A DNA stretch of 36,175 nucleotides from Minisyncoccota bacterium (lineage in GTDB: Bacteria > Patescibacteriota > Minisyncoccia > Phycocordibacterales > DASSSU01): positions 1 to 36,175 of the forward strand of contig DASSSU010000018.1 of assembly GCA_035708305.1 (NCBI GenBank), written 5' to 3'. Made by a program: the position numbers and the translations under genes. The notes beneath the pieces were generated by a model. It ran no database searches, was not told the origin of the DNA, and saw nothing but the letters and a program-made list of their open reading frames with translations. Of the stretch, positions 436 through 29,160 are shown one piece after another (the stretch's first letter is position 1; the number at the start of each line of letters is the position of its first letter).

Positions 436-2607
436 ATGCAGGATAAATTTCTAAAACCATATAACTCTAGTGAAGTTGAGCCGTCTATTTACAAACTTTG
501 GGAAAACTCTGGTTATTTTAATCCTGCTAACTTGCCCGGTGAACAAAAAGAAACCTTTACTGTCGTATTACCGCCCCCAAACGTGACAGGAGTACTCCAC
601 TTAGGCCATGCCTACGAAGACTCATTACAAGATGCGGTTATTCGCTATCAGCGCATGCGTGGCAAACGAGCTTTATGGGTTCCTGGGACAGATTCTGCCG
701 CTATTGCTACGCAAGCTCGGGTTGAGAAAAACATTCAAAAAGACGAAAGTAAAAGCAGACATGATTTGGGGCGAGCAGAATTAGTACGCCGAGTGTCAGA
801 ATTCGCTAAAAATAGCGAAGACACTATTCTAAATCAAGTGCGTCGCATGGGCGCATCACTTGATTGGAGTCGTTACGCGTATACGCTTGATGAAAAACGT
901 AATTTTGCCGTGTCAACTGCTTTTAAGCGCATGTATGATGCGGGACTTATTTATCGTGGTAATCGTATTGTGAACTGGGACCCGAAAGGTCAGACCACTA
1001 TTTCTGATGATGAGATAATTCACGAAGAACGCACCACAAAACTCTACACATTTAAATACTCGAAAGAATTTCCAATAGCAATCTCGACAACTCGTCCAGA
1101 AACCAAGGTTGGTGATACTGCCGTTGCTGTGCATCCTGACGATGAAAGATATAAAAACTTTATTGGTAAAGAATTCGACGTTGTTTTCTGTGATGTGCCG
1201 CTCCACATAAAAATTGTGGGCGATGATTCAGTAGAAAAAGAATTCGGCACTGGTGCACTTGGTGTAACTCCAGCACACAGTCAAATTGACTGGGATATTG
1301 CAGATCGCCACAACCTTGAACGACCACAAGTGATAAACGAATATGCCAAAATGATCGCTCCTGGACGCTTGAAAGATAAAAAAGTCTTAGATGCGCGAGA
1401 AGATGTTGTTACATGGCTCAAAGAACAGGGGTTGCTTGAGCAGGAAGAAGAAATTACACAAAACGTATCGACTTCTGAACGGACTGGTGCAGTTATTGAA
1501 CCGCTCCCTAAATTGCAGTGGTGGGTTGATGTGAATAAGACTTTTACTATTCCGCACTCTGAAATACCAGGAATCGCAAGTGGATCACAAACGTCTCTGA
1601 AGGAAATCATGCGGAAGAGTGTAGAAAGTGGCGCTGTCGATATGCCGCAAGAGCGATTCAAAAAAACATACTTTCATTGGATTGATAATCTGAGAGACTG
1701 GTGTATTTCTCGACAAATTTGGTTTGGCCATCGTATCCCTGTTTGGTATAAAGGCGATGAAATTTACTGTGACACTATTGCTCCAGAAGGTTCCGAGTGG
1801 AAGCAGGAAGAGGACGTGCTTGATACTTGGTTTTCTTCTGCACTCTGGACATTCTCAACGCTTGGCTGGCCAGAAAAGACGAAGGACTTAGAGACTTTTC
1901 ATCCAACTTCGTTTATGTCACCAGCATATGAAATTCTGCCACTTTGGGTCTCTCGCATGATTTTGATGAGTGGTTTTCACCTAGGGCAAGTGCCGTTTAA
2001 AACAGTAATGATTCATGGACTGGTGCGAGACAAGCAAGGCTGCAAGTTTAGTAAGTCTCTTGGAAATGGTGTTGACCCGATAGAAGTTATTGATAAATAT
2101 GGAGCGGATGCATTGCGCATGGGCTTACTTGTAGGCACTGCTATCGGCAATGATATTAAATTCGATGAAAGTAAGATTAAGGGATATAAGCATTTTGCAA
2201 ACAAAGTTTGGAATATAACAAGATTTGTTTTAGAAAATACTGAAGGTGTTGATTTCTCGCAACCAGTAACTTCTACACATAAAGATCAGGAACTAATAAA
2301 GAATCTTGAAGCTCTCATTACCGAAATAACGGAAGATTTTGATAATTACCGACTCTATCTTGCCGCTGAAAAGATTTATCATTATGTATGGCATGAAGTT
2401 GCAGACAAGATTTTAGAAGAATCAAAACCAATTCTAAATGGCAATAATAGTGACGAGAAACTATCTCGCCAACATACACTTTATACACTTCTAACAACGT
2501 CACTCAAACTGTTACATCCATTTATGCCGTTTGTAACTGAAGAAATTTGGCAATCATTGCCAGAAAAGGAAACAGATATGCTAATTGTCACAGAATGGCC
2601 ATCATAA
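436..2607 (+). CDS. valS: Valyl-tRNA synthetase, class I aaRS. HIGH motif PPPNVTGVLHLGHA, KMSKS motif KFSKSLGN, anticodon-binding domain present. It ends at ...IVTEWPS, so the usual C-terminal coiled-coil domain is absent.
   Basis: The N-terminus MQDKFLKPY..IYKLWENSGYF aligns with canonical ValRS starts. The ATG at 436 is the first start consistent with that alignment; the track ORF from 310 runs back into GC-rich non-coding sequence. 723 aa. Confidence 0.9.
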   Translation: MQDKFLKPYNSSEVEPSIYKLWENSGYFNPANLPGEQKETFTVVLPPPNVTGVLHLGHAYEDSLQDAVIRYQRMRGKRALWVPGTDSAAIATQARVEKNIQKDESKSRHDLGRAELVRRVSEFAKNSEDTILNQVRRMGASLDWSRYAYTLDEKRNFAVSTAFKRMYDAGLIYRGNRIVNWDPKGQTTISDDEIIHEERTTKLYTFKYSKEFPIAISTTRPETKVGDTAVAVHPDDERYKNFIGKEFDVVFCDVPLHIKIVGDDSVEKEFGTGALGVTPAHSQIDWDIADRHNLERPQVINEYAKMIAPGRLKDKKVLDAREDVVTWLKEQGLLEQEEEITQNVSTSERTGAVIEPLPKLQWWVDVNKTFTIPHSEIPGIASGSQTSLKEIMRKSVESGAVDMPQERFKKTYFHWIDNLRDWCISRQIWFGHRIPVWYKGDEIYCDTIAPEGSEWKQEEDVLDTWFSSALWTFSTLGWPEKTKDLETFHPTSFMSPAYEILPLWVSRMILMSGFHLGQVPFKTVMIHGLVRDKQGCKFSKSLGNGVDPIEVIDKYGADALRMGLLVGTAIGNDIKFDESKIKGYKHFANKVWNITRFVLENTEGVDFSQPVTSTHKDQELIKNLEALITEITEDFDNYRLYLAAEKIYHYVWHEVADKILEESKPILNGNNSDEKLSRQHTLYTLLTTSLKLLHPFMPFVTEEIWQSLPEKETDMLIVTEWPS

Positions 2608-2613
2608 AGTTAT

Positions 2614-4368
2614 ATGAAAGTTAAAAAAGATGAGTATATTATTGGTGTTAACGTCGGACACGATTCTGGTATCGCATTGGTGCATAATGGTGTTTTTGTT
2701 GAGGTTATTTCTGAAGAAAGATTTACACGTCAAAAGGGGCATTTAGGTTTTCCTCACAAATCTTTGGATTACATAAAAGACAAATATCACATTAATGCAT
2801 TTGACAGGGTTGTGGTTATTTCTGGCAGTGGCCGCTATAAAACGATATTTTTTGATGAGCAAAAAAATAAAAGTCTACGACAACAGCGAAAAGGAGATGT
2901 TGAGGATGTCTTTATTAAGTCTATTCTTTTTAGATACAAAATTCTCAACATTTTAAATGCTTGGAAACATGTAAAGAAAATTTTTAAGCAGTATTTTAGG
3001 GCGCGTAAAATCAATCAATTCCTTCAGAAAAAGTTCCCAAATCAAGAAGTTTTGCACCTAGATCACCATCTTGCCCATGCGTGGGGCGCATTGGCATTTG
3101 CTGATTGTTCACAGGATCAGCTAATTGTCACGCTCGACGGTGAAGGAGATGGTTTGTCAGGTTCAATTTGTGAATATAAGAACAATCAACTAAAACGACA
3201 CTCTGTCGTTTTAGCTAAAAATTCTATAGGTACGCTTTATGGCCGCGTGACTGATTACCTTGGAATGAAAAGAAATGAACACGAGTACAAAATCATGGGT
3301 CTCGCGCCTTATGCAAAGGAGGATTCGAGCCGAATTGTGCTCGATAAATTCAGAGAGATTTTATGGTTAAGCAAAAACTCACTGAATTTTGAAAGTGCAT
3401 TTGATATGCAATTTGCACATTACTATATGGTTGCAAATAACTTCGGAAACTACCGCTTTGATGCTGTTGCATGGGCGATACAGGAATTTACTGAAACTAC
3501 CGTCTTAAGGTTTGTTCAGGCTGCACTCAAAAAGCATGGAGCAATAAATCTTTCTCTTGGCGGCGGGGTATTTATGAATATAAAATTAAATCAGCGGATA
3601 CTTTCCACTTGCGATCTTCACATTTTTAACCCGGCACCATCGTGTGGCGACGACTCACTATCAATTGGCGCAGCAAAGTTTGGTTATGACAATTTTTCAG
3701 GTAAAAAAACAGCACCGATCAAACATCTCTACCTAGGGACTGAATATACAGATGTTGAGATCAAGAAACATCTAGACAAGTTAGATGCTAACCAATACAA
3801 CATAAGCCATTTCAAAGGTGAACACGAAATTGAACAAGAAGTCGCTAAACTTCTAAGTAAGAATGAAATTGTTGCTCGATTCAAGGGACGTATGGAATGG
3901 GGTGCTCGTGCTTTAGGAAATAGATCAATCTTGGCAAACCCAACTACATTTGACAATGTTCGAACTATCAACGAAGCAATTAAAAATAGAGACTTTTGGA
4001 TGCCGTTTGCTCCTAGTATGTTAGCGGAACGTGCAGATGATTATCTAATTAATCCACAAAAGTTTTTATCGCCCTTTATGGCTGTTGGATTTGAGACAAA
4101 CAGTGAGAAAGCGAACGAATTTGTTGCTGCAATACATCCTTATGACAAAACTTGTAGACCTCAGGTGGTTTCTAAAGAGGTTAATCCTGACTACCATTCA
4201 CTTATTAAGTCTTTCGAGGAATTTACGGGAGCTGGGGTGATACTGAACACTAGTTTTAATCTTCATGGGCAGCCTATAGTTGAAAACCCTGCGGACGCAC
4301 TACAGACACTTGAACAAAGTGGTTTGCGGTATTTAGCAATTGGAAACTATTTGGTTTCTAAAAAATGA
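2614..4368 (+). CDS. NodU/CmcH/TobZ-family carbamoyltransferase
   Basis: 584 aa. Hallmark motifs GVNVGHDSGIALV near the N-terminus and LHLDHHLAHAWGA (metal-binding HxxH region), plus a C-terminal YrdC/Kae1-like portion. Starts 7 nt after the valS stop. Confidence 0.85.
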   Translation: MKVKKDEYIIGVNVGHDSGIALVHNGVFVEVISEERFTRQKGHLGFPHKSLDYIKDKYHINAFDRVVVISGSGRYKTIFFDEQKNKSLRQQRKGDVEDVFIKSILFRYKILNILNAWKHVKKIFKQYFRARKINQFLQKKFPNQEVLHLDHHLAHAWGALAFADCSQDQLIVTLDGEGDGLSGSICEYKNNQLKRHSVVLAKNSIGTLYGRVTDYLGMKRNEHEYKIMGLAPYAKEDSSRIVLDKFREILWLSKNSLNFESAFDMQFAHYYMVANNFGNYRFDAVAWAIQEFTETTVLRFVQAALKKHGAINLSLGGGVFMNIKLNQRILSTCDLHIFNPAPSCGDDSLSIGAAKFGYDNFSGKKTAPIKHLYLGTEYTDVEIKKHLDKLDANQYNISHFKGEHEIEQEVAKLLSKNEIVARFKGRMEWGARALGNRSILANPTTFDNVRTINEAIKNRDFWMPFAPSMLAERADDYLINPQKFLSPFMAVGFETNSEKANEFVAAIHPYDKTCRPQVVSKEVNPDYHSLIKSFEEFTGAGVILNTSFNLHGQPIVENPADALQTLEQSGLRYLAIGNYLVSKK

Positions 4369-4967
4369 TCCGGCCGCATTTTGACAATATCAATAATTGT
4401 ACGAGTCATACGGATGTAGTTCTGATCACCAGAGTTAATCAGATATTTTGTTAAGGTACTTTCATCGAACAGCTTTTTTAAAAGACGTTGTCTTTGTATA
4501 TAAAAGTCTATGAATTTTTCTTGATCTCCGTCGGAGCGTTCCATAACATATTGTACCCACTGCACATTTCTATATTTTAGTGCATCAAGCAGGCGTCTTT
4601 TTAATGCTTCTTCTGGTATATCTATAAAAAATAGTATTGCATTATGTCGTTTCAGACTACTTTCTATGTCTGCAAAATCCTTGATGGTGGAATTGGTTTT
4701 TATTGTATGAGTAAAATGTAATCTGTCAAAAACGTAAAGGTTTTTATTTTCAGCAAATACAGTTTTAAGTAGCTTTCTTAGAAATTCCTGATTATGTTTC
4801 AGATTCGTACTGTCGATGCATGGGATTACAGTCTCTTCTTCAGGTAAAAAAGTTCCTGACAAACCATGTTCTTTCGCGTAACGTCTTAGGTTGTCAGCGA
4901 TAGTGCTTTTACCACTTGTTGTCACTCCCTCAACTATGATAGTGCGATGGAAATTTTCTATACTCAT
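4347..4967 (-). CDS. P-loop NTPase, nucleoside/nucleotide-kinase-like. Walker A GVTTSGKST and DRxH motif FDRLHFTH, dNK/thymidylate-kinase-like fold.
   Basis: 206 aa. Last gene of the minus-strand operon. Start overlaps the upstream gene by 4 nt (4964..4967). The 3' end overlaps the convergent carbamoyltransferase by 22 nt. Confidence 0.6.
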   Translation of the reverse strand: MSIENFHRTIIVEGVTTSGKSTIADNLRRYAKEHGLSGTFLPEEETVIPCIDSTNLKHNQEFLRKLLKTVFAENKNLYVFDRLHFTHTIKTNSTIKDFADIESSLKRHNAILFFIDIPEEALKRRLLDALKYRNVQWVQYVMERSDGDQEKFIDFYIQRQRLLKKLFDESTLTKYLINSGDQNYIRMTRTIIDIVKMRPDHFLETK

Positions 4968-7240
4968 ACGTATTTTTGGATATATTTTATCTCATTAAGC
5001 ATATGCATTACTCCATGAACCAGAGGAGCAGGTAAAACCTTATCAAATTTTTTTCTCGAAGATGAATGTAGCTTATGGTTTTGAACTCCAATCGATAAAT
5101 GATTTTCTATGCGTGTATCTGGTATATCAAATTCATCATCCCCTACATGAACAGAAAGTATCTGTTTCCCGTATTGCTTTTTCAGTGTTTCTAAGCCAGT
5201 AAATTTACTACCATGTAAAGGATTAACAACTACTTTTAGTTCCCGTGTATTTGTGAAGTAATAGTATAAGTTAAATATCGACCAATCAATCTCTATCATA
5301 GAATCTTTGAGGATATTAAATTTGTACCCATCCCTGATATATAATGTGCCGTCACGTTCATGGAAGATGGAGATATTTTGCCTTACGAGTAACTCTTTAA
5401 GCTCTTGGAGATTCCCCAGATATTCTTTTGGAGCTAGGATTTTCTGTTTGTCCGATGCCGTGTCGTACAATACCGCACCATTTTCTGCCAATATGTAATC
5501 GAATTTCAAGGATGCATTAATCTCTTTTGCTTGACCAATGCTATTGTTTGTATTAAGAACAGTTACAAAATTGGGATTTATGTCTTTAACATAGTGCTGA
5601 ATTTGTGTAGCTTCCATAGCTAGCGGACTATGAATAGACTCTCTTAGGGTTCCATCTAAATCAAAAGAAAGAATGATAGGATTGTTATCCTTGATAGAAC
5701 AGCGTATCTTCTCATACTCTTTACCTAAGTAGTCATAAGCTCCTAGTTCACGAAATAAATCATGTATTTGTTCCGTCTTGGCATTGATACTAATGAAGAT
5801 ATTTAACAGGGCCTCTGTTTTGTTCTCTGTTTCAGCAGAGAATTTATAAGAAGTCATGTTGTCTAAAGCTACTTCAAAATCTAATATTTGGTTTAGTGAG
5901 TCAAGTAATATCTCTTTCGTGCGAGAACTTCCAGAACCGTTGATCTGAGTAACCGCATGTTTTACTTTCTTAATGTCTGTCCTTATCTCATTGGTTCTTT
6001 TTTGTGAAATATCTTTCAAGAATTTGGCAAAATACAAGCTATTGTTTTCCGATAATTTGATTAAGCAGCTGTATATTTGTGGGTCATTATCTCTTAATAA
6101 TGCTTCCACTATATGGGAAGGACTTGCAGCATCACCATTGTTTTTTCTTCGTCTAATATGTCTCGGTCCGGTTGCAATTTTTATTGCGTTTACCCCAAAT
6201 TTACTCCTCACTTGAGCAGAGATTACCAGGTCCTGAAGAGAAAAAGGCAGGACGAGTAGATTACTTATCGCTGTTGCGCGTATACTAAATGCACCCCCGT
6301 TTATTGTGAATGTGTGAGCAGAAGTTTGATTGTTTCTGCTCCTTGTATAAAGATTTGAAATCGGTTTTCGATCAACAAAACTGCGCAAAATTGTGTCTAC
6401 TTTTTCTTCAAGTTCTTTCCTGTTTGCAATAGTAGTATTTTCCTCGTTGTCAAAAATATTGAAAGGTGTAAAACGGGATTGTGACAATGAAGTAGAGAGC
6501 ATTTGTAGTATATCAACGAAATCACGGAACATTTTGTAAGGCGATCCTGTGTGATGAGTAACCCTGCCGGAAACAACCTGACTGTTTGGAAGCGAGAATA
6601 ACAACTCTCTCTCCTTGAAAAAATCAAAATCATTAACAATATATTTTCCGTCATTTTCGTCAAGTACTGAGTAATGGATGTCATCATCATGAAAAGTACA
6701 TATTGTTTGTTCAGGCTCAAAATTGTATTTTCCTATGGTGTATTGACTCATAAGGAGCGAGTAATTGAAAGCTCCAATTGTTCCACCAATATTCTTGAAT
6801 TCTTGTGAAATAAAGGAGATAAACTCTTCTTTGGGAAAAACTCTTGGGTTTAATTTCTCAATTTGTTCAAAAATTTTATTTCGGTCGTGTATATGATAGA
6901 TGTGAACGTTGATAAATTCGGGAGCAGTTGAGTTCAAACGATTGACTAGTGCATCAAATACAGTGGCGATTTCTCCCTCTTTCGTATCGTTGATAATGTT
7001 AATGATTATTTTATCTCGTTGGACGCTATATTTTTGAACATTGTCGAAGATAGAAATAATAAGACGTTCAACCAAATATGGATAGTTACAAGCGCGGATA
7101 TTAACAATTTCATTCTTTATTTCAAAAAGAGTCCCGTATCGTTTTTTTATAAAAATCTCCACCTGCCCTAAGTCAAAAGAATTTAAGTAGATATCTCCGA
7201 ATTCATCATAATTTTGTTTTCCCATAGTTACAGGTTTCAT
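4964..7240 (-). CDS. Large two-part protein. The ~500-aa N-terminal region has unassigned function (acidic DDD/DxD-containing, possibly a glycosyltransferase-like synthase). It is fused to a C-terminal HAD-IIB (Cof/MPGP/SPP-type) phosphatase domain.
   Basis: 758 aa. HAD motifs are visible: ILSFDLDGTL (motif I DxDGT), ILAENGAVLYD, and VHVGDDEFDIPD (motif IV-like). Both start and stop overlap neighbouring genes by 4 nt (ATGA). Confidence 0.6.
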   Translation of the reverse strand: MKPVTMGKQNYDEFGDIYLNSFDLGQVEIFIKKRYGTLFEIKNEIVNIRACNYPYLVERLIISIFDNVQKYSVQRDKIIINIINDTKEGEIATVFDALVNRLNSTAPEFINVHIYHIHDRNKIFEQIEKLNPRVFPKEEFISFISQEFKNIGGTIGAFNYSLLMSQYTIGKYNFEPEQTICTFHDDDIHYSVLDENDGKYIVNDFDFFKERELLFSLPNSQVVSGRVTHHTGSPYKMFRDFVDILQMLSTSLSQSRFTPFNIFDNEENTTIANRKELEEKVDTILRSFVDRKPISNLYTRSRNNQTSAHTFTINGGAFSIRATAISNLLVLPFSLQDLVISAQVRSKFGVNAIKIATGPRHIRRRKNNGDAASPSHIVEALLRDNDPQIYSCLIKLSENNSLYFAKFLKDISQKRTNEIRTDIKKVKHAVTQINGSGSSRTKEILLDSLNQILDFEVALDNMTSYKFSAETENKTEALLNIFISINAKTEQIHDLFRELGAYDYLGKEYEKIRCSIKDNNPIILSFDLDGTLRESIHSPLAMEATQIQHYVKDINPNFVTVLNTNNSIGQAKEINASLKFDYILAENGAVLYDTASDKQKILAPKEYLGNLQELKELLVRQNISIFHERDGTLYIRDGYKFNILKDSMIEIDWSIFNLYYYFTNTRELKVVVNPLHGSKFTGLETLKKQYGKQILSVHVGDDEFDIPDTRIENHLSIGVQNHKLHSSSRKKFDKVLPAPLVHGVMHMLNEIKYIQKYV

Positions 7241-7881
7241 TGGTTAAGCATGAAATGGTTCGGCTCAAGACAATGTCCGCCAATCGGTCCCTCAACATAT
7301 TTTAAGACGTATTTCGTGAACTCAAGATGTCCGAGTTTAGTATATCCGTCATTGTATGTTTTGTTTGCGAGTGTATAGACGATATCAAAATCAAGCTCGT
7401 GTTCATCGCAGTATTGGTGGATACGTTTGTTAAGCAAAATTGCTTCGCGGTAAATTTCAGTGTCCCATAATTTCATCGCTTCGGTATTTTCCGGCTTTTC
7501 AGTCGTGACAGTTTCAACGCCAAACGCAGAGAAGTGGGCTGCCACCTCTTCAGCACGCTCACCGCCAAAGAATTTAACAAATGTTTTAATGCCTTCGGCA
7601 AGATGTGGATGTTTACCACGCACTGGCGAATGCACCGCTTCCTTACCACACTTGCTGGTTGTACCCACAGGCACAGTGGAGTGAATAACGATCACACTCG
7701 CTCCCGTATCATGTTTGTATTTTTGTACTAATTCAACAAACTGGTCTGAGTACGGAAAGCAGATATGAATAATATCTGCTTTCCGTACTTCATCATTTTT
7801 ATCAATGCCATCGCATTGCAATACTTCCGCGAGGCCAGTTCCAATTTCACCCATTCCAATCACTAAATGTTTTTTCATCAT
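7237..7881 (-). CDS. NAD(P)-binding Rossmann oxidoreductase. The N-terminal fold resembles UDP-glucose/GDP-mannose dehydrogenase (VIGMGEIG, HSTVPVGTT); a GGHCLEPN cysteine motif is present.
   Basis: 214 aa, which is short for a full UDPGDH. Starts with MM, 4 nt after the XRE gene stop. Confidence 0.5.
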   Translation of the reverse strand: MMKKHLVIGMGEIGTGLAEVLQCDGIDKNDEVRKADIIHICFPYSDQFVELVQKYKHDTGASVIVIHSTVPVGTTSKCGKEAVHSPVRGKHPHLAEGIKTFVKFFGGERAEEVAAHFSAFGVETVTTEKPENTEAMKLWDTEIYREAILLNKRIHQYCDEHELDFDIVYTLANKTYNDGYTKLGHLEFTKYVLKYVEGPIGGHCLEPNHFMLNQ

Positions 7882-7885
7882 ATAA

Positions 7886-8092
7886 TCACTTCAATAACTC
7901 ATCACTTGTAACCCCCAACGCCCCTGCCAGCCGCTCAATCGTCGCAAGGGTAGGATTACCGTTTCCCGATTCAATATTACTTACTTGTGCACGATCAAGC
8001 CTTGTCGCACGGCAAATATCGCCTTGCGACATATTCTTTTGCTCACGAATACGTTTGATATTTTTACCGAGTCGTTTTGTTGGGGTATCCAC
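7886..8092 (-). CDS. XRE-family helix-turn-helix transcriptional regulator. Probable GTG start giving ~68 aa.
   Basis: The sequence KRLGKNIKRIREQKNMSQGDICRATRLDRAQVSNIESGNGNPTLATIERLAGALGVTSDELLK is a classic HTH_XRE helix pattern. The track ORF runs back to 8326 through the inverted repeat, which is implausible. An internal ATG at 8032 would cut off helix 1, so the GTG at 8092 is preferred. Confidence 0.6.
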   Translation of the reverse strand: MDTPTKRLGKNIKRIREQKNMSQGDICRATRLDRAQVSNIESGNGNPTLATIERLAGALGVTSDELLK

Positions 8093-8150
8093 GTCACATA
8101 TTTTACTCTTATTGTTAAGTATAACAATAGTGTGGTATATTTCAATAGCG
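8093..8150 (-). promoter_or_regulatory. Candidate sigma70-like promoter, TTGAAA-16-TATACT read on the minus strand. An overlapping palindromic operator ttgtta-N4-taacaa sits at 8111..8126. Likely autoregulation of the XRE operon.
   Basis: On the minus strand: ttgaaa tataccacactattgt tatact taacaataagag...GTG. The inverted-repeat half-sites TTGTTA/TAACAA were seen directly. Confidence 0.4.
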
Positions 8151-8160
8151 CCTTTACACC

Positions 8161-8276
8161 CGCGCCCATTTCCTTTTCCATTCTGCGGTGGAGGGGGACA
8201 GGGGGAGGAGCCGCAAAAAAGATGCAAAGGGAAATGGGCGCGGGATGCGGCGCACGAGGTGAGCGGAGGCGTCTCG
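8161..8276. repeat. Right copy of the perfect 116-bp inverted repeat. The terminal palindrome ggcgtctc-gtca-gagacgcc spans the repeat boundary at 8266..8285.
   Basis: Exact reverse complement of 1..116. Followed by ~300 bp of GC-rich non-coding sequence. Confidence 0.9.
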
Positions 8277-8573
8277 TCAGAGACGCCGGAGCGAGCCGAG
8301 GGCGCACCGAAGCGTAGGACCACCACGCGATCGGAGCGTACGAGTTAATCAGAAGCCACCACGCGCTTCCGCGCGTGCGAAGTGGGTTCGAGCAAAGGTT
8401 AGTATTTCTGCACAAAACGAGTGCGGCGAGTTTTTGTTCCCGAGAGGAAGCCGCTCTACGGCTTCCGTGCAGGAATCGAAGCCCGATTGAGCGGATTTTG
8501 TGAGTGAAACGAAACAAAATCTCCAATCGGGATACTGCTCCTGTAAGGAGAGATCCTTGCCGAGGGCACCAAC

Positions 8574-9342: not shown

Positions 9343-11877
9343 TTATTTTACAAGGCGCCAACTTCCTCCTTCGATCAGCGGAAGTGCTTTTTTATACTTC
9401 ATGGATTTAGTCTCCTTGCCATCCGTGATCTCCACCACATCATTTCGCCCGATCTTCTCTTCCGTCGCCGGTGAGTGACTTTTCTTGGTTGAAGCATCGG
9501 CTTTTCCTTCTTCGCCGCCCGCCTCGCGGAAACTTTTTTGCATTTCTTTCGCCTCCTGCTCTGCTTTGACAAACATGCCGCCGCCAATATTGCCAATGAG
9601 TCGGATGGTCTCGCTGCGGAAAGTGTCTTCCATGTCATGGAACATCTGCAAGCCTTCTTTCTTGTACTCCACGAGCGGATCACGCTGTCCGTACGCACGC
9701 AAGCCCACGGAAGAGCGCAAATACTCCATGGCTTCGAGATGGTCCATCCAGAGCATGTCCGTCAGCTGGAGGAAGAGCCGACGCACGAGTCCGAGAAAAT
9801 CTTCCTCACCAAGCTCGGCTTTTTTCTTCTCCACGAGTTTCGCGGCATCATCATCCCCCGCGATCAATTCATCCAAGAATTCACGGATAAAATCCATGTC
9901 ACCGAGCAAGATCTTGCGCCGCCGTTCGTAGATCTTGTTGCGCTGCTGGGCAAGCACGTTGTCGTACTGAAGCACGTTGCGGCGAGAATCGAAATGAAAC
10001 CCTTCGATCTTTGTCTGTGCGGTTTCGAGTGACCGTGAAATAATTTTGTTTTCGATCGGCTGATCTTCCGGAATTCCAAAGGTGCCCATCATCCGCTTGA
10101 TCGCATCGGCAGCAAAGACCCGCATGAGGGAATCCTCCAGTGAAACAAAAAATTGCGTTTCACCCGGATCACCCTGACGTCCTGAACGTCCGCGAAGCTG
10201 GTTGTCGATCCGCCGCGCTTCATGCCGCTCCGTTCCAAGCACAAAAAGCCCGCCAAGCTGCTTGATCTCCTCGTATGTTTCCTCTGTCCCGGGATTGCCG
10301 CCAAGTTTGATGTCCACGCCGCGCCCTGCGAGGTTGGTCGCGATCACCACGCTTCCTTTCTTCCCTGCCTGTGCAATGATCTCTCCTTCGTTTTCGTGGT
10401 TCTTGGCATTCAAAACCTGATGCGGAACGCCTTCTTTCTGCAAAAATGCCGAGAGAAGTTCGTTTTTCTCGATCGAAACCGTACCGATCAAAATCGGCTG
10501 ATTTTTTTCGTGCACTTCTTTTACCCGCGCCGCAATAGCTTTGAATTTTCCAATCTCTGTTTGGTAGATCAGATCGTTTTTGTCGATGCGCTGTACTGGC
10601 ACGTTCGTCGGCACTTCCGTCACATCAAGTCCATAGACTTTGTAAAATTCCTCACGCGACGTGCTTGCGGTTCCCGTCATGCCCGCAAGTTTTTTGTACA
10701 TGCGAAAATAGTTTTGAAACGTAATCGATGCAACCGTACGCGACTCCTTTTGAATCGTCACACCCTCTTTCGCCTCCACCGCCTGATGAAGCCCTTCCGA
10801 CCACCGGCGTCCCGGCTGAAGCCGCCCGGTAAATTCGTCTACGATGATGATCTCTCCATCGCGGATCACGTATTCTTTGTCTCGTTCAAAAAGCGCTTTC
10901 GCCCGCACAGCAGTTTCCAGGTGATGCACATCTTTGATCCCACCTTCGGTGTAAATATTTTCTACACCAAGGAGTTTCTCTGCCTTGGTAATGCCCTCAT
11001 CCGTAAGCTGAATAGCGCGAAGTTTTTCATCTACTTCATAATCCTCATCCGGCTTCAAACGCTCGGCAATTCGTGCGAACTTCACGTACAGATCTTCAGA
11101 CTCTCCGGAAATGGCAGAGATGATAAGCGGTGTTCTCGCTTCGTCGATCAAAATAGAGTCGATCTCGTCCACAATCGCGAAATGGTAATCACGCTGCACC
11201 AGTGCTTCCGACGCGTATGCGAGATTGTCGCGCAGATAGTCGAAGCCGAACTCGTTGTTCGTACCATACGTGATATCTGCCGCGTAGGCTTCCCGCCGCG
11301 TGCATGGACGCAAAAATTCATACTCTACTTTAAAAGACCCGAGTTCATCGCGCACCTCGTCGTCCTCCTTGCTTTTATGCTCGGCGTCGTAGAGATATGA
11401 GGACTCATGGTTGATCACGCCGACCGAAAGCCCGAGAAAAGCATAGATCTGTCCCATCCACACCGCATCACGCCGGGAGAGGTAATCATTCACCGTCACC
11501 ACATGCACTCCTTTTCCTTCGAGTGCATTTAAGTACACAGGAAGCGTTGCCACAAGCGTCTTTCCTTCTCCAGTACGCATCTCAGAAATATTTCCCTGAT
11601 GAAGCGCGATGCCTCCCATCAGCTGCACATCGTAATGTCGCTGGCCAAGCACACGCTTTGCTGTTTCGCGTACCACCGCAAACGCCTCCGGAAGAATGTC
11701 GTCCAGTGTTTCATTTTTGTTCAGCCGCGTTTGAAACTCTTTCGTCTTTTCGCGCAATTCCTCGTCCGAGAGTTTTTGTATCTCAGATTCAAGGGCGTTA
11801 ACTTTTTCCACCAGAGGACGCATCGTCTTTAGCGTCTTCTGTGTCCCTCCTCCAAACAGGTTTTTGAAAAGCTCCAT
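9343..11877 (-). CDS. secA: Preprotein translocase ATPase SecA
   Basis: 844 aa. MELFKNLFGG...TGEGKTLVATLPVYLNAL (Walker A in NBD1), DEAD-like helicase motifs, long helical scaffold domain. Confidence 0.95.
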   Translation of the reverse strand: MELFKNLFGGGTQKTLKTMRPLVEKVNALESEIQKLSDEELREKTKEFQTRLNKNETLDDILPEAFAVVRETAKRVLGQRHYDVQLMGGIALHQGNISEMRTGEGKTLVATLPVYLNALEGKGVHVVTVNDYLSRRDAVWMGQIYAFLGLSVGVINHESSYLYDAEHKSKEDDEVRDELGSFKVEYEFLRPCTRREAYAADITYGTNNEFGFDYLRDNLAYASEALVQRDYHFAIVDEIDSILIDEARTPLIISAISGESEDLYVKFARIAERLKPDEDYEVDEKLRAIQLTDEGITKAEKLLGVENIYTEGGIKDVHHLETAVRAKALFERDKEYVIRDGEIIIVDEFTGRLQPGRRWSEGLHQAVEAKEGVTIQKESRTVASITFQNYFRMYKKLAGMTGTASTSREEFYKVYGLDVTEVPTNVPVQRIDKNDLIYQTEIGKFKAIAARVKEVHEKNQPILIGTVSIEKNELLSAFLQKEGVPHQVLNAKNHENEGEIIAQAGKKGSVVIATNLAGRGVDIKLGGNPGTEETYEEIKQLGGLFVLGTERHEARRIDNQLRGRSGRQGDPGETQFFVSLEDSLMRVFAADAIKRMMGTFGIPEDQPIENKIISRSLETAQTKIEGFHFDSRRNVLQYDNVLAQQRNKIYERRRKILLGDMDFIREFLDELIAGDDDAAKLVEKKKAELGEEDFLGLVRRLFLQLTDMLWMDHLEAMEYLRSSVGLRAYGQRDPLVEYKKEGLQMFHDMEDTFRSETIRLIGNIGGGMFVKAEQEAKEMQKSFREAGGEEGKADASTKKSHSPATEEKIGRNDVVEITDGKETKSMKYKKALPLIEGGSWRLVK

Positions 11878-11933
11878 AATATTACGTCAAAAGATAAACA
11901 ATAGATGCAATTATACCATGGAAAGAACCAAAG

Positions 11934-11960
11934 AAAAACCCCTCAAAATAAGGGGTTTTT
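11934..11960. terminator. Bidirectional rho-independent terminator: A5-cccct-caaaata-agggg-T5
   Basis: Lies between the K-rich small gene (stop 11980) and the secA start (11877). Confidence 0.6.
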
Positions 11961-11979
11961 CGAAGAGAACTCGGAAAAA

Positions 11980-12126
11980 TTATTTCTTCTTTCGAGTGGT
12001 CTTTTTTGCAGCTTTCTTTTTTGCTGGAGCTTTTTTCTTTGCAACCTTTTTCTTGGCCACTTTCTTTTTTGCTACTTTTTTCTTTGCAACCTTTTTCTTT
12101 GAAGCAGCTTTCTTTTTTGCTGGCAT
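11980..12126 (-). CDS. Lysine/alanine-rich small basic protein (histone H1-like / KKAA-repeat DNA-binding protein): MPAKKKAASKKKVAKKKVAKKKVAKKKVAKKKAPAKKKAAKKTTRKKK
   Basis: I reverse-complemented and translated this by hand: ATG at 12126..12124, TAA at 11982..11980. At 48 aa it is below the ORF-track cutoff. The track's 83-aa ORF on the same strand in another frame is Cys-rich and less credible. A terminator follows immediately. Confidence 0.55.
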   Translation of the reverse strand: MPAKKKAASKKKVAKKKVAKKKVAKKKVAKKKAPAKKKAAKKTTRKKK

Positions 12127-12427
12127 AAAACAAAAATTATTTATTCCCTCAAAAAATTTTTTAAAAAATAAAAAAACATTTTGAAGGGGGCTTATTAAAA
12201 ATCAGCGAAAGCTTCGACCTCGGTTCAAATCTTTTTTGCGATCAAAATGAAACGCAAAACTTTTTCTAAACCTTCGCAACGATCTGCATTAATTATCATT
12301 CAATTAAAAATTAATACAATATTTTTTTACAAAAAAATTGTGGATAACTTTTTATTTTTTAAAAAAAATTTTTGTAAAAGTTTTTTATTTTTTATTCCGC
12401 AAGATACTTTTAAATTTTTTTTAAGCA

Positions 12428-12484
12428 AGAAAAAATCTCCGGCATTGCTTTTCGAAGTTTGTGGGCTTCACGAGAAAAGCAATG
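12428..12484 (-). terminator. Probable murB terminator: 11-bp stem cattgcttttc/gaaaagcaatg enclosing the 20-nt core GAAGTTTGTGGGCTTCACGA, followed on the minus strand by a T-run
   Basis: Stem 12443..12453/12474..12484, loop 12454..12473. The A-run at 12428..12436 on plus gives a T-run on the minus strand. Confidence 0.5.
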
Positions 12485-12516
12485 ACAGAGATTTTTTCTT
12501 TTTTCTCTCACAATAT

Positions 12517-12606
12517 CGAGAACGAGAAGCTTCCTTCTTTCAAGACACCGCTCCAAGGGCGCTTGCCCGGTCTTAGTGTCTTGAAAGAAGGAAGCTTCTC
12601 GTTCGA
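12517..12606. repeat. Long near-perfect hairpin. A 28-bp perfect stem (12521..12548 / 12576..12603), plus 4 bp beyond a 2-nt bulge, around a 27-nt loop that holds a small gggc/gccc hairpin.
   Basis: I reverse-complemented the arms directly: aacgagaagcttccttctttcaagacac pairs with gtgtcttgaaagaaggaagcttctcgtt. The right arm ends 20 nt from the murB stop at 12626. Confidence 0.7.
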
Positions 12607-12625: not shown

Positions 12626-13648
12626 TCAAAAAAACCGCACTTCGTATTCAAGTTCAACAGCCGTCTTGTCTTTCACACACGCACGCACTTCTTCCGAAAA
12701 ATTTCGTACATCCGCCGCACTTCCCTCGCCATAGTTTACGATTGCCAGTGGCTGTTTCGGGTAAGTCCCCACATCGCCTTTTCGGTACCCACGCATGCCG
12801 CACACATGATCAATCAGCCACGCCGCTGGGACTTTGTAGCCTTGCTCCACCGTGTAGAACGGCATTTCAGCATACGTTTTCTGCAGTTGTGCAAAAGCGC
12901 TTTCAGAAAGAATAGGGTTTTTGAAAAAAGAGCCAAGTGTCCCCAAAACTGCCGGATCAGGGAGCTTGTTTTTTCGGATCGTGATCACGGCCTGGCGCAC
13001 ATCCGCAAGTGTCGGATGATCGTTCTTTTCTGCTTCAAAATACGCACGGACATCTTTGTAGTTCGTATTGATCGGAGCGTTCTTTTGTAGACGAAACAAC
13101 ACCCGCGTGACGACGAAATGCTTTCCTTCTTCTGTTTTGAAAAAACTGTTGCGATAAGAGAAGTTGCATGCTTCGTTTGAAAACTTTTTTACGACAAGCG
13201 TTCGAGTGTCCAGCGCTTCCACTTCATGAATCGTTTCTTTCACTTCCGTTCCGTACGCGCCGATATTTTGCACCGGACTCGCGCCAACCGTACCAGGAAT
13301 CCAAGAAAGGTTTTCAATACCACCAAGATTCCTTCTCACCGTTTCCGCCACAAACCCATCCCAGTTTTCTCCCGCACCGACACTTACGACAGCATTCCCC
13401 TTTTCGTCTTCATCTCCAAACTCCATCCCGAGCATTTGATTGCGGATGATCAACCCTGGAAAGCCATCATCAGAAAAATACATGTTCGACCCTCCGCCGA
13501 TGGTGAGCAGCGGAAGCTTTTTTTCTTTTGCAAAACCCACCGCTTCTTTCAGATCCGCGAGATTTTCCACGGTACAAAAAAACCTCGCAGGTCCGCCGAC
13601 ACGCAAGGTTCCAAAATTTTTGAGCAGAACGTTTTCCTCCATTTTCAT
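12626..13648 (-). CDS. murB: UDP-N-acetylenolpyruvoylglucosamine reductase
   Basis: 340 aa. FAD-binding PCMH domain (TIGGGSN), MurB C-terminal domain (GxGSFFKNP...GYRxGD). Confidence 0.9.
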   Translation of the reverse strand: MKMEENVLLKNFGTLRVGGPARFFCTVENLADLKEAVGFAKEKKLPLLTIGGGSNMYFSDDGFPGLIIRNQMLGMEFGDEDEKGNAVVSVGAGENWDGFVAETVRRNLGGIENLSWIPGTVGASPVQNIGAYGTEVKETIHEVEALDTRTLVVKKFSNEACNFSYRNSFFKTEEGKHFVVTRVLFRLQKNAPINTNYKDVRAYFEAEKNDHPTLADVRQAVITIRKNKLPDPAVLGTLGSFFKNPILSESAFAQLQKTYAEMPFYTVEQGYKVPAAWLIDHVCGMRGYRKGDVGTYPKQPLAIVNYGEGSAADVRNFSEEVRACVKDKTAVELEYEVRFF

Positions 13649-13889
13649 CGCGGTCTTTTCAAATTACGATGAAATCACGGCCACTTGCGGCCAACGGAGG
13701 CGAGCTCCAAGCAAACGTCTATGTGAGTGCTGCCGTTAGCCACAGCCAGCCATGATTATCTATTGTATTATACCAGTTATGAGAGCGAAATGAAAAACTT
13801 TTTTCTCTTCACGGAGTGGATAAAATCGCAGTAGATTTCTTATGAATTCTTAAGAAATATAGAGACTTTACTGGTTTTTGCCGAAAAAG

Positions 13890-14770: not shown

Positions 14771-14928
14771 GTTTTTCCTCCGTTTGGGCACATCGTGCTT
14801 GGTAAAGAGCCTGTTTCTGTTTGTACCATAAACAGCGCGTTTTATCCAGATTTCTCCCCTCCTCAGCTTTGCCCACAAAAACAAAGGAGGAACTGAAAAC
14901 TGAAATCTCACCGCCTCTGCCAAAATGC

Positions 14929-17398: not shown

Positions 17399-17791
17399 TT
17401 ACGCACCCGGGATAGTTGGCGTCAATTGCTGAACGTTTGTAGGAGCAGTTACAGTTGTTGCACCGCCGTTGTTTACGCCAAACGTGTCTTGTAAAATCTT
17501 TACCAATCCCCAGACAGACACAATCACAAAAAGAGCAATAATACCCCAAATCATGATTGAAATACCTTCCGATCGTGCACCGGCATCTCCTGACTTCAGG
17601 ATAAACATTGCCAATCCATAGAAGAAGAAAAGAACAGCAAGTGTGATGAGGATCGGGATAATAATGTTGATAAGGTTGCCGATAATTCCAAGGATACCTG
17701 CGAGCCCACCACTACCACCTGACGTTTGTGCAAAAGCAAATCCCGGAGTAACCGCCAAAAGCGCTAACGCTCCATACAGAATTTTTTTCAT
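17399..17791 (-). CDS. Small two-transmembrane secreted/membrane protein, paralog 2 (signal peptide MKKILYGALALLAVTPGFAFA)
   Basis: 130 aa. Conserved core ILITLAVLFFFYGLAMFILKSGDAGARSEGISIMIWGIIALFVIVSVWGLVKILQDTF. Confidence 0.65.
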   Translation of the reverse strand: MKKILYGALALLAVTPGFAFAQTSGGSGGLAGILGIIGNLINIIIPILITLAVLFFFYGLAMFILKSGDAGARSEGISIMIWGIIALFVIVSVWGLVKILQDTFGVNNGGATTVTAPTNVQQLTPTIPGA

Positions 17792-17967
17792 ACGTAATTC
17801 GATAAAAAATAATAATTTGCGACCTAATATTAATTTATCCGAAACGCGCGCAAATTGGGAGCGTTTCTTTATTCAACATCATAAAATGTTCATCCAAATT
17901 CCGCAACTCAAACTGTGGATAATCTCTTTCTAAGAGGAAGCAGGCGACAAAACAACTCTCAGTTACC

Positions 17968-18243
17968 TTATACACTCGGCGCCGGAAAGACCTGAACTGA
18001 TTGATTGACGTTGAAGGTATCCTGCAAAACAAACACAAGCCCCCAAAGAGAGACCATCACAAACAGTGCAATGATACCATAAATCATCAGGTTGATTCCC
18101 TGTTTCCTTGATTCTTCATTCCCTGCCGCGAACATAAAACGAACGATACCATAGAAAAAAAACAGAACCGTGAGTGCAATAAGAAGTGCAATGATGGTCT
18201 GGAGAATGCTTCCAGCACTGTAGAGCAAACTGCTGATATCCAT
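17968..18243 (-). CDS. Small two-transmembrane membrane protein, paralog 3 (no signal peptide)
   Basis: 91 aa. LLIALTVLFFFYGIVRFMFAAGNEESRKQGINLMIYGIIALFVMVSLWGLVFVLQDTF. Confidence 0.65.
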   Translation of the reverse strand: MDISSLLYSAGSILQTIIALLIALTVLFFFYGIVRFMFAAGNEESRKQGINLMIYGIIALFVMVSLWGLVFVLQDTFNVNQSVQVFPAPSV

Positions 18244-18263
18244 AGAAGTAAAAAATAGAAAAA

Positions 18264-18635
18264 TTAAAAATCAGGAATTTGAGGAAGCGTGGAATATGTG
18301 GATCCAGCAGGACCAAAAACAGAATACTGGATGATCGCCACCAGCCCCCAAATAGAAATCATGACAAAAATAGCGATAATACCGTAGAGCATGTACTTCC
18401 CACCCTCGGTCCGCGCTTTCGGGTCTCCGGCAGAGAAAAGGTACTTTGCGATCCCCCAAAAAAAAGCCACCACTGAGAGCGCAATAAGAAGCGGAATAAC
18501 TGCCCCGATCATGCCCAGGAGGTTGTCCACCAAACCAGTAAAATCAATGGCAAAAGCAAAAAATGGAGTAAAGAGAGAAGCAAAAAGAAGAAAGGGCAAG
18601 AAATTTTTCTTTGAAGGTTTTTTATGTGTGTTCAT
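18264..18635 (-). CDS. Small two-transmembrane secreted/membrane protein, paralog 4 (signal peptide ...FTPFFAFA)
   Basis: 123 aa. LLIALSVVAFFWGIAKYLFSAGDPKARTEGGKYMLYGIIAIFVMISIWGLVAIIQYS. Confidence 0.65.
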   Translation of the reverse strand: MNTHKKPSKKNFLPFLLFASLFTPFFAFAIDFTGLVDNLLGMIGAVIPLLIALSVVAFFWGIAKYLFSAGDPKARTEGGKYMLYGIIAIFVMISIWGLVAIIQYSVFGPAGSTYSTLPQIPDF

Positions 18636-18661
18636 GGTTTTAATTACTCTGGTTACTTCCT

Positions 18662-19027
18662 CTACAACTGAGCGATGGTCTGAGCAATGGCATGCGCCAG
18701 AACTTTTGCTCCGAGAATAATCGCCGCGCCAATCACTACCGCCACAAAGGCGCTGCGAGCGCGTGTGAGCTTCTGCGTATCGCCCTGTGCGGTGATAAAC
18801 ATAAAGCCAGAGATAATGATAAAAATCACGATCACCGGGACCGCGATCTGTATCACGATAGTCAAAAGCGCGTCGATAAAGTCCGGAAGAGTGCTAATGC
18901 TTGTGAGAGGATTCTCAAAGGTCATTGCACCAGCAAAAAGCACGCTGGGGAAAAAGAGAGCGAGCAATGAAAGTAAAAAGTACCAAATATGCCGTGTTTT
19001 CTTTTTCCAATTTTGCAGCTTTTTCAT
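18662..19027 (-). CDS. Small two-transmembrane secreted/membrane protein, paralog 5 (most divergent). The start is taken at MKKLQNWKKK..., a signal-peptide-like N-terminus.
   Basis: The track ORF extends to 19108 and would overlap the solute-binding-protein gene by 44 nt. The ATG at 19027 gives a K-rich n-region, an h-region and an AGA cleavage-like site. Core VIVIFIIISGFMFITAQGDTQKLTRARSAFVAVVIGAAIILGAKVL. Confidence 0.55.
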   Translation of the reverse strand: MKKLQNWKKKTRHIWYFLLSLLALFFPSVLFAGAMTFENPLTSISTLPDFIDALLTIVIQIAVPVIVIFIIISGFMFITAQGDTQKLTRARSAFVAVVIGAAIILGAKVLAHAIAQTIAQL

Positions 19028-19064
19028 AAAAAATATTGTAACCGCTTCCGTAAGAAAAAACAAT

Positions 19065-20429
19065 TTATAGCTGTGCATTAGCGCTCGGCAGCGCTCCACC
19101 ACCCGCACTCACCGCCGGAGGAGGTGCAACACTCTTCAGAAGAAGATCCATTTCTTTTTGCATCATCTGAATCGCACCAGCTACGGTAAGCGCTCCTGAG
19201 TTCACATTATCGATCGCTTCCTGGAAAATGCGCGATGTCTGGTCTGGATCCGGGTCACGCCACCCGCGGCTGATGATGGCGGAATTGTAGAAAACTGTTC
19301 GGAAAGCATCCGTCGGCCTGGTTGCATAGAGATCGCGGCGAACTGGCGGGAGATACGTCGCCTGAGAAAGCGCCTGCGAGAACTTCGGCCCGGCGAGGGT
19401 AAGTGCCACGATGTAGGCAGAGTTGATGTTGTGAGACTGCTTCAAAATCGCCACTCCAAAAATCTTGCCGATAGTTGCGGAGAACTTTCCATCCCGTACC
19501 TGCGGCACCTGGGCGACATCGAAGTCGAGAAGCGGGTTCTTGCGCTGGATATCCGCATACTCGCTCGCATAGCCGAAGTAGATCGCGAGCTTTTGGTTGG
19601 TAAACATATCCAAAGAATCCGGCAAGGCGCGATTCCAGGAGTAGATATCAGGCTGGGTCGGATCGGCGAAATTGGTAAAAAAAGTCAGAGCATCACCTGC
19701 GGGAGGAATACTACCGCCCTTATCTCCGATGAGCGTGGCAGTTGTTACTCCCTGATTCAACTCCACGATCGGGTTGCCCAACTGAAGCATCAGCATCGCC
19801 AAAATATCTTTTGCATGAGTGACGTTTTGGTATTCTCCAAGTGCTACCGCGCTTTGCGTGATGTTGTCATCCTGTGTTTTTTCCGTAAGAATCGGCGCAA
19901 GCTTATAGAGCTCATCCCAATATTGAGGGGGACGGACAATTCCCTTTTGCGCAAACATGTCACGGTTCCAATACATCACCATCGGATCTATATAAAACGG
20001 TAGAGCAAGAATACCGTCCGAACGAAGGTAGATTTCTCCCTGTTGGAGATAGGCGTTTCGAAAATCACGCTCGGAAATAACACTGAACGGGATAACCTGC
20101 AGACTCTGCTGGCGCTTCAGAATCAAATCCTGTGGGATCAGTACCAGATCAGGACCCTGGCCGATCGCCAGAGCCTCCACCAGATCGTTATCAAAATTTG
20201 TGGCGTCTTTCTCCACATACTTCACCTGATTCGGGGGATAAAATTTTCCGATCAGCTGACTCATGGACTGCTGCGGAAAGGTTCCCCAGATGGTAACCGT
20301 TCCTTGGACATCCCCGCCTTCTTTCGCAGCTTTATGTGGTTTTGGAATAAGTCCAGAAAAAACCAAAATGCCGCCGACAAAAAACGCGATACAAATTCCT
20401 GTCACAAGTAATGGAAAACCGGTTTTCAT
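19065..20429 (-). CDS. Extracellular solute-binding protein family 1 (sugar-type ABC transporter substrate-binding protein) with an N-terminal transmembrane anchor. Orphan: no permease or ATPase is adjacent.
   Basis: 454 aa. MalE-like features TVTIWGTF, ALPFYIDPMVMYWNRDMF, PPQYWDEL. Confidence 0.8.
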   Translation of the reverse strand: MKTGFPLLVTGICIAFFVGGILVFSGLIPKPHKAAKEGGDVQGTVTIWGTFPQQSMSQLIGKFYPPNQVKYVEKDATNFDNDLVEALAIGQGPDLVLIPQDLILKRQQSLQVIPFSVISERDFRNAYLQQGEIYLRSDGILALPFYIDPMVMYWNRDMFAQKGIVRPPQYWDELYKLAPILTEKTQDDNITQSAVALGEYQNVTHAKDILAMLMLQLGNPIVELNQGVTTATLIGDKGGSIPPAGDALTFFTNFADPTQPDIYSWNRALPDSLDMFTNQKLAIYFGYASEYADIQRKNPLLDFDVAQVPQVRDGKFSATIGKIFGVAILKQSHNINSAYIVALTLAGPKFSQALSQATYLPPVRRDLYATRPTDAFRTVFYNSAIISRGWRDPDPDQTSRIFQEAIDNVNSGALTVAGAIQMMQKEMDLLLKSVAPPPAVSAGGGALPSANAQL

Positions 20430-25087: not shown

Positions 25088-25157
25088 GAAAACATTATAT
25101 CAAAAAAAATCCAAAAAATATACCTTTTTGGAATGAAAAACATGAGAAAATAAACGA

Positions 25158-29051: not shown

Positions 29052-29160
29052 ACTATATTATTCTTCACTGAAGTGTTTAATCGTCTTTAAGTATAACAAG
29101 AGAGGTATGGGAAAGGAACGCTTACAGTGGATAACTTCCTTACTTTATTCCCCGCCCTCC

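Follow-up and report, generated by a model that had tools for sequence, protein, structure and literature searches.

A conserved gene for a lysine-rich mini-protein very probably occupies the murB-secA interval in a clade of ultra-small Paceibacteria

A short open reading frame (ORF) at positions 11980..12126 on the minus strand of the window, i.e., the whole 36,175-nucleotide stretch analysed here, very probably represents a genuine gene that has a promoter and a terminator of its own and that is located between murB and secA in a clade of ultra-small Paceibacteria. We are highly confident that its 48-codon frame is translated. With regard to the function, we lean, by a modest degree, towards a free-standing, histone-H1-tail-like polycation that would act stoichiometrically on nucleic acids, most likely the chromosome. 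The comparison of the window with related loci showed a real small gene, conserved in place, under selection in the lysine frame or on its strand, and equipped with its own expression signals.

Translation of the minus strand from 11980 to 12126 gave MPAKKKAASKKKVAKKKVAKKKVAKKKVAKKKAPAKKKAAKKTTRKKK, a sequence of 48 aa that runs from MPAKKK to TTRKKK and is delimited by ATG and TAA, and this agrees exactly with the lysine/alanine-rich peptide described in a sequence-only reading of this DNA. The ATG is the first start codon past the preceding in-frame stop. The assignment as the CDS of a 48-aa polycationic protein was made from this translation together with synteny and the bracketing by ATG and stop. 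The protein contains 26 Lys, 1 Arg, 11 Ala, 4 Val, 2 Pro, 2 Thr and 1 Ser, and no acidic, aromatic or large hydrophobic residues; its pI is 11.8, its mass without Met is 5,169 Da (5.17 kDa), and its net charge is about +27. The basic block extends from residue 4 to the stop and includes four KKKVA pentamer repeats, and TRF reported a repeat with a period of 15 nt and 7.7 copies on the ORF. The AlphaFold2 model consisted of a single uninterrupted helix over residues 2–47 (mean pLDDT 90), with no globular domain or fold. For a peptide with a charge of +27, this model is best read as a helical propensity upon charge neutralisation. Every tryptic peptide of the protein is 4 aa or shorter, and trypsin-based proteomics is therefore blind to it. 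On an identical 1.2-kb Logan contig, which comes from an independent assembly, a gene caller predicted exactly this 48-aa ORF.

The SecA sequence places the window in the Patescibacteria, class Paceibacteria, with 70% identity to the best genome match and 71% to the best metagenome match. The neighbours of the small ORF, both on the minus strand, are secA (9343..11877, with its ATG at 11877) and murB (12626..13648; NCBIfam NF000755, 351 bits against a cut-off of 277). A Lys/Arg/Ala-rich ORF was found after murB and before secA, or before hpf-secA, on the same strand in 16 other loci with a SecA identity of 54–71% (L002, L004, L005, L006, L008, L009, L010, L082, L083, L084, L086, L088, L093, L094, L095 and L099). 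Because position, strand and composition are kept in these 16 loci, the ORF is far beyond chance. The claim that a small Lys/Ala-rich gene had been overlooked by ORF-length cut-offs was thus borne out by its conservation. The orthologous ORFs encode 13–106 aa with a K+R fraction of 0.49–0.72, and their N-terminus reads M-(A/P)-(A)-K-K-(K/R) throughout. The shortest have only 13–25 aa, and the sequence of a short orthologue is MAKRKKAAKKKKR. The ORF is located directly 5' of secA in 15 of the 17 loci, and hpf intervenes in L010 and L086.

Of the 13 loci whose SecA is at least 64% identical, 11 have the ORF; at a threshold of 61% the figure is 16 of 26, and below 60% it is 1 of 17. From this distribution, it is a clade-specific conserved gene and no accident of composition. 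Elsewhere, small Lys/Arg/Ala-rich ORFs were rare across the first ~750 kb of the DNA retrieved. The ORF is absent from the murB-secA position in some close relatives, namely L085, L087, L003 and L007, of which L003 and L007 keep murB and secA adjacent; the gene is therefore dispensable or relocated in these four. In L094 (2045-2365), the orthologue has grown to 106 aa by near-perfect, Arg-rich repeats of the KRKPAKRKRKAA type, which shows rapid repeat amplification inside the orthologue group. The metagenome scan yielded nothing above 71% SecA identity. Since no closer relative was available, the internal repeats and the codon usage were used in place of a codon-level alignment for dN/dS.

The small ORF is accompanied by putative expression signals on both sides. 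On the minus strand, an intrinsic-terminator-like hairpin with a T-run (11923..11961; stem 11961..11933, 13 pairs GAAAAACCCCT/AGGGGTTTTTC, −19.9 kcal/mol) starts 18 nt past the TAA. The sequence-only reading had described a bidirectional terminator after the stop. The hairpin and T-run are in place, and with an A-run on the 5' side and a T-run on the 3' side the element has the bidirectional form, but the terminator scan listed it for the minus strand only, and a terminator in the other direction is not needed because murB and secA are both on the minus strand. Of the 16 orthologues examined, 15 have a strong hairpin (−16 to −34 kcal/mol) with a sense T-run behind it within 70 nt past the stop; L094 is the only orthologue without a clear T-run terminator.

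Upstream of the ORF, TTATCCACA (12339..12347, minus strand), which is identical to the DnaA-box consensus, precedes a putative promoter whose -10-like hexamer, GATAAT (12292..12297, minus strand), was read from the sequence 41 nt downstream of the box. This DnaA-box-like 9-mer, usually GTTATCCACA, matches perfectly in the window and in 10 orthologous loci and nearly so in a further 4, and the succession of the box, 37–42 nt and (G/C)ATAAT recurs in L002, L004, L008, L009, L082, L088, L093 and L099. In this shared layout the hexamer is followed by GCAG, and in the window GCAG at 12287..12284 on the minus strand is likely to be the transcription start region. The presumed 5' leader contains GGTCGA (12214..12219, minus strand), and the word GGTCG(A/G) occurs in 12 of 16 loci (besides the window, L002, L004, L006, L009, L010, L084, L086, L088, L093, L094 and L099), mostly 27–54 nt before the ATG and about 85–95 nt before it in the window, L002 and L086. 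In this window a hairpin, CCCCCUUCAAAA...UUUUUUGAGGG, is also predicted in the leader just 5' of the ORF start (12146..12187, minus strand). Between the terminator and the secA ATG, an extended -10-like sequence, TGGTATAAT (11910..11918, minus strand), was recognised by sequence, which suggests that secA has its own promoter. From the terminator and the upstream elements, the small gene looks like a monocistronic unit, and it appears to be built for strong expression.

Two long back-to-back hairpins, unique in the window, are located just downstream of murB at 12520-12604 and 12427-12500. One has 29-nt arms with 100% complementarity and a 27-nt loop, and the other has 27-nt arms with 93% complementarity and a 20-nt loop. 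They make the spacer between murB and the ORF (502 nt, 30% GC) about double the 137–307 nt of the relatives, and they may represent either a pair of terminators or an inserted element.

The DnaA-box-like element is also found elsewhere. The TTATCCAC(A/T) box precedes the T4SS-pilin gene (17922..17914), murB (13823..13815) and the gene for a 1297-aa protein (29134..29126), all on the minus strand, and a box with one mismatch is located at 14842-14850 on the plus strand before the SPFH gene. GGTCGC occurs at 17825-17821 (minus strand), 27 nt before the pilin-gene ATG at 17791. The TTATCCAC(A/T) box was also observed in L012, L043 and L044. The distance from the box to the -10-like hexamer is either ~30–32 nt or ~40–43 nt, one helical turn apart. 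Perfect box sites number 2 in the window against 0.22 expected, and at least 15 of 23 box sites in Paceibacteria-like loci are intergenic, where the intergenic share of the DNA is only 11%. Judged by its sequence and placement, TTATCCAC(A/T) looks like a lineage-wide promoter-upstream element that is identical to the DnaA box, and it may serve as an activator site or as a UP-like promoter element, perhaps bound by DnaA. A replication origin in the AT-rich 500-bp spacer was considered and rejected, because a single box stands there at a fixed distance from the -10, other genes carry the same box, and the cumulative GC skew shows no turning point at 12.3 kb.

A-rich DNA is without stop codons in several frames. 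The ORF could accordingly be untranslated, a side effect of a repetitive A-rich spacer or of a small non-coding RNA; alternatively, an antisense frame could be the real one. Competing ORFs had been pointed out earlier, and both were confirmed: a Cys-containing frame of 83 aa at 11882..12133 on the minus strand and a Phe-rich antisense frame of 106 aa at 11864..12184 on the plus strand. The lysine frame is open in 17 of 17 loci, begins with ATG-(A/P)-(A)-K-K (GTG in L083) and stops right past the basic block, and it is the only frame bracketed by ATG and stop at every locus; the other sense frames contain stops or have no start. The antisense Phe-rich frame is open in 13 of the 17 loci, but a start codon is lacking in four loci and ATG is hardly ever used; its two ends overhang at random, by −43 to +39 codons on one side and by 0 to 173 on the other.

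Among the four KKKVA units of 15 nt each, all differences fall at the five wobble positions, and the other ten positions are identical. Lysine is encoded by AAG in 70% of cases in the small ORFs compared with 40% in the adjacent secA, and the AAG share is higher in 16 of 16 loci (Fisher P = 1e-18). AAA codons are interspersed with AAG, and long A runs are avoided: the longest in the window was 6, against a mean of 9.7 for synonymous shuffles (P = 0.011), and pooling the small ORFs gave P ~ 0.0005. These KKKVA-wobble and lysine-codon tests reveal constraint on a pair of frames, because the antisense Phe-rich frame has the same wobble positions and carries the same synonymous-site signal. The third-position test was therefore downgraded as proof of the lysine frame, and the ATG/stop bracketing was used instead. 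The choice of the strand rests on this bracketing, on the orientation of promoter and terminator, and on plausibility; the arrangement of the promoter elements and the T-runs that follow the hairpins point along the sense strand.

No Shine-Dalgarno sequence was found at a proper distance before the small-ORF ATG, which would suit an untranslated element, but several other genes of the window are likewise without one. With regard to a non-coding RNA, Rfam gave no match at gathering thresholds, and the relaxed matches were all sub-threshold hairpin look-alikes. RNAalifold on 10 leaders returned zero consensus pairs; the hairpin placements vary by locus, and only the word GGTCGR is kept. No tRNA or tmRNA genes were found. 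Together with the gene-caller prediction on the independent assembly, these observations make an untranslated element or a real antisense gene very unlikely, and translation of the 48-codon lysine frame remains our strongly preferred reading.

Its location directly upstream of secA on the same strand gives the small ORF a likeness to SecM, and we examined whether it might be a regulatory leader for secA, in which slow or stalled translation of lysine codons would modulate terminator read-through or secA expression. Poly-lysine stretches slow ribosomes, the ORF is immediately 5' of secA in nearly all loci, and a terminator is located between them. SecM carries a signal peptide together with a specific arrest motif and shares its transcript with secA, whereas the small ORF encodes no hydrophobic segment for secretion sensing (the maximum 9-aa Kyte-Doolittle mean is −0.76) and is separated from secA by the terminator and by the putative extended -10 promoter. 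Neither a signal peptide or transmembrane segment nor, at the level of the sequence, co-transcription with and translational coupling to the sec gene, as in leaders of the SecM/MifM/VemP type, was found. In addition, the codon choice avoids slippery or stalling A runs, and the terminator stem, 18 nt past the stop, is beyond the footprint of the terminating ribosome. The gene hpf stands between the ORF and secA in L010 and L086, L003 and L007 keep the gene pair without the ORF, and the length variation of 13–106 aa is unlike that of arrest peptides. A leader of this kind was rejected on these points and seems highly improbable.

The 48-aa protein was then compared with known families. A phmmer and profile search of 5.8 billion proteins gave nothing significant, and its weak matches were K/A-rich tails of unrelated proteins; a PDB search gave no significant match. 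No exact-sequence cluster for the protein and 10 orthologues was present in the collection, which is uninformative on their annotation. The absence of a significant homologue in any library is due to the low complexity of the sequence, and consequently the functional assignment rests on composition and analogy. The sequence-only reading had likened the protein to H1 and Hc proteins. The resemblance stands, since the KKKVA repeats resemble the C-terminal tail of H1 and chlamydial Hc2, but membership of these families does not, as the scores fall below the cut-offs: 15.4 bits against 40 for Pfam HC2 (PF07382), 10.8 bits against 135 for NCBIfam Hc2 (NF038052), and 13.1 bits against 80 for the Burkholderia/Bordetella H1-like family (NCBIfam NF038053). 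Neither the winged-helix domain of linker histone H1/H5 (PF00538) nor the N-terminal dimerisation domain of Hc1/HctA (PF07432) was matched in Pfam, even at E up to 10. Judged from these profile scores, the small gene belongs to no curated histone-like family.

With 26 K, 11 A, 2 P and 0 D/E in 48 aa, the protein has the Lys/Ala/Pro-rich character of the linker-histone basic tail, and, with KKKVA four times followed by degenerate pentamers, it has the consecutive basic pentamers of Hc2, in which A, V, T or P are the other residues. The 36-aa higher-order repeat elements, the conserved flanks and the length of 165–237 aa that mark Hc2 were not found, and neither were the KPAA motif and the structured N-terminal domain of the AlgP and PhaF type. 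The single-domain H1-like architecture matches the 48-aa protein, although a sequence of such low complexity gives no significant alignment on descent. In related sequences, a MAAKKK...AKK module is attached N-terminally to domains associated with DNA, as in SWIB-domain proteins. In L009 (1922-2188 and 9161-9634), K/A-rich N-terminal tails were also observed on a MazE/AbrB-like protein, whose DNA-binding domain scored 24.4 bits, just below the cut-off of 24.7, and on a Cys-rich protein of 138–157 aa; tails of this type thus look like a widespread module of the lineage.

Since lysine-rich H1-like proteins have been described from several bacterial groups, this kind of protein is already known. 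Hc2 consists of basic pentamers with A, V, T or P, as do Hc2-like proteins from Bordetella and Burkholderia; all of them vary in length by gain and loss of repeats and bind DNA and RNA (PMC2848022). The 48-aa protein shares with Hc2 (HctB) and BpH1 the runs of basic pentamers with Ala, Val, Thr and Pro, the lack of acidic repeat residues and the variable length; Hc2 and BpH1 condense the nucleoid, and their binding to DNA (and RNA) is non-specific (PMC2848022). It differs in its size of 48 aa compared with 165–237 aa, in having three basic residues per pentamer instead of two (PMC2848022), in the higher-order repeats and conserved flanks that it lacks, and in its occurrence in another phylum and in the murB-secA context. 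The single-domain K/A/P-rich H1 proteins of trypanosomes and the TgH1-like protein of Toxoplasma organise or compact chromatin without a globular domain (PMC3486875, PMC9769792). Like these and the C-terminal domain of metazoan H1, the 48-aa protein is one Lys/Ala/Pro-rich domain without a globular winged helix, whereas the kinetoplastid and TgH1-like proteins are eukaryotic, act on nucleosomal chromatin, have 70–110 aa and contain more Pro.

The K/P/A-rich region of PhaF binds specific mRNAs and activates translation (PMC12818456), and AlgP associates with polyphosphate granules (PMC9239181). These proteins, which bind polyanions, resemble the 48-aa protein as bacterial Lys/Ala/Pro low-complexity polycations that vary in repeat number by species; they differ in that the repeats are tails on larger proteins, the motif is KPAA (absent here), and the demonstrated partners are not bulk DNA. 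A free-standing small peptide in which more than half of the residues are basic is also reminiscent of protamines. Protamines are free-standing proteins of ~30–50 residues with >50% basic residues, and act solely by charge neutralisation and condensation of DNA; they differ in being Arg-rich, where the present protein is Lys-rich, often Cys-containing, eukaryotic and of unrelated descent.

The protein would most likely be disordered alone and helical once its charge is neutralised. By analogy, it would attach to the phosphates of DNA or RNA irrespective of their sequence, and the bound polycation would screen charge and bridge or condense the polymer, with the chromosome of the ultra-small Paceibacteria cells as its main target. 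The C-terminal tail of histone H1, the single-domain H1 of trypanosomes, chlamydial Hc2 and protamines act in the same manner. We infer that the protein is abundant, that it binds nucleic acids, and that its main partner is DNA rather than RNA. The nucleoid compaction that had been proposed for KKAA-repeat proteins would follow from the composition.

DNA is not the sole candidate partner, because PhaF and Hc2 bind RNA and AlgP associates with polyphosphate granules. Binding to RNA or to the ribosome is a serious rival, and polyphosphate a lesser one. The same protein might have RNA or the ribosome as its main partner and chaperone RNA, modulate translation or attach loosely to the ribosome as an accessory polycation; we give this a modest chance. 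The direct binding of mRNA by the K/P/A-rich disordered region of PhaF (PMC12818456), the high RNA affinity of Hc2 (PMC2848022) and the association of the Toxoplasma H1-like protein also with nucleolar and ribosomal proteins (PMC9769792) are consistent with such a role. So are the position of the ORF directly 5' of the ribosome-hibernation gene hpf in L010 and L086 and the 13–25 aa orthologues, which have the size of small basic ribosomal proteins (bTHX, bS22, bL37). On the other hand, no ribosomal-protein family in NCBIfam or Pfam was matched at E up to 10, the 13–106 aa range with free expansion of repeats in L094 is a misfit for a fixed slot on the ribosome, and the adjacency to hpf is limited to 2 of 17 loci.

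The polycation might also serve another polyanion or another cell, as an organiser of polyphosphate granules or as an exported cell-penetrating or antimicrobial peptide of an episymbiont against its host; we consider this quite improbable. Lysine-rich helical peptides are often membrane-active, and the gene for a type IV secretion pilin in the window has the same TTATCCACA promoter box, but this shared box is unspecific because it also precedes murB and other genes. No signal peptide was found, and there is no amphipathic pattern, as the periodicity is of 5 residues and the only apolar residues are Val and Ala. For the granules, the localisation of the K/P/A-repeat protein AlgP (PMC9239181) is the precedent, but no polyphosphate kinase or export genes are adjacent to the ORF.

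Beyond the preferred H1-tail-like polycation acting on the chromosome, a more speculative proposal, which we regard as rather doubtful, is that the tail-only polycation is a genetically encoded counter-ion, a surrogate of protamines or polyamines, that would set the compaction of both nucleoid and ribosomes near the lower limit of cell size. It would be strongly expressed, would vary between 13 and 106 aa by gain and loss of repeats, and would belong to a DnaA-box-like promoter class, possibly tying its supply to the replication initiator.

Several other features of the window were recorded. The region of ~2000-7900 has a low GC content (34–40% against 45–51% elsewhere) and contains three minus-strand ORFs without a Pfam match (4347-4967, 4964-7240 and 7237-7881), which adjoin an XRE-type HTH regulator (7886-8326); PADLOC and NCBIfam gave only weak hints there (VakA-like, HAD-like). 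This region may be an acquired island. At 17399-19108 on the minus strand, three consecutive small genes match T4SS pilin / TrbC-VirB2 (PF18895, PF04956). At 25087-25100, also on the minus strand, TATAAT is located just 8 nt before the ATG of a gene for a 222-aa protein of the metallo-beta-lactamase fold, a spacing which suggests that its mRNA is leaderless or near-leaderless.

What is distinct in the present case is the very small, tail-only form, the plasticity of 13–106 aa and the fixed murB-secA site in a clade of the CPR, together with the conserved promoter and leader words and the failure of every curated family test. In the literature on Patescibacteria (CPR), we found no paper on nucleoid proteins or lysine-rich mini-proteins, and to our knowledge nothing is known experimentally of how these bacteria package a chromosome of ~1 Mb in extremely small cells. 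ORF-length cut-offs and composition filters hide a conserved gene here, and HMMER-based searches return nothing for it. If the protein is merely one more H1-like protein, the gain would be an annotation fix for a CPR clade. As a conserved, free-standing basic mini-protein, it is a concrete and cheap candidate for nucleoid packaging in the CPR, and the peptide can be synthesised.
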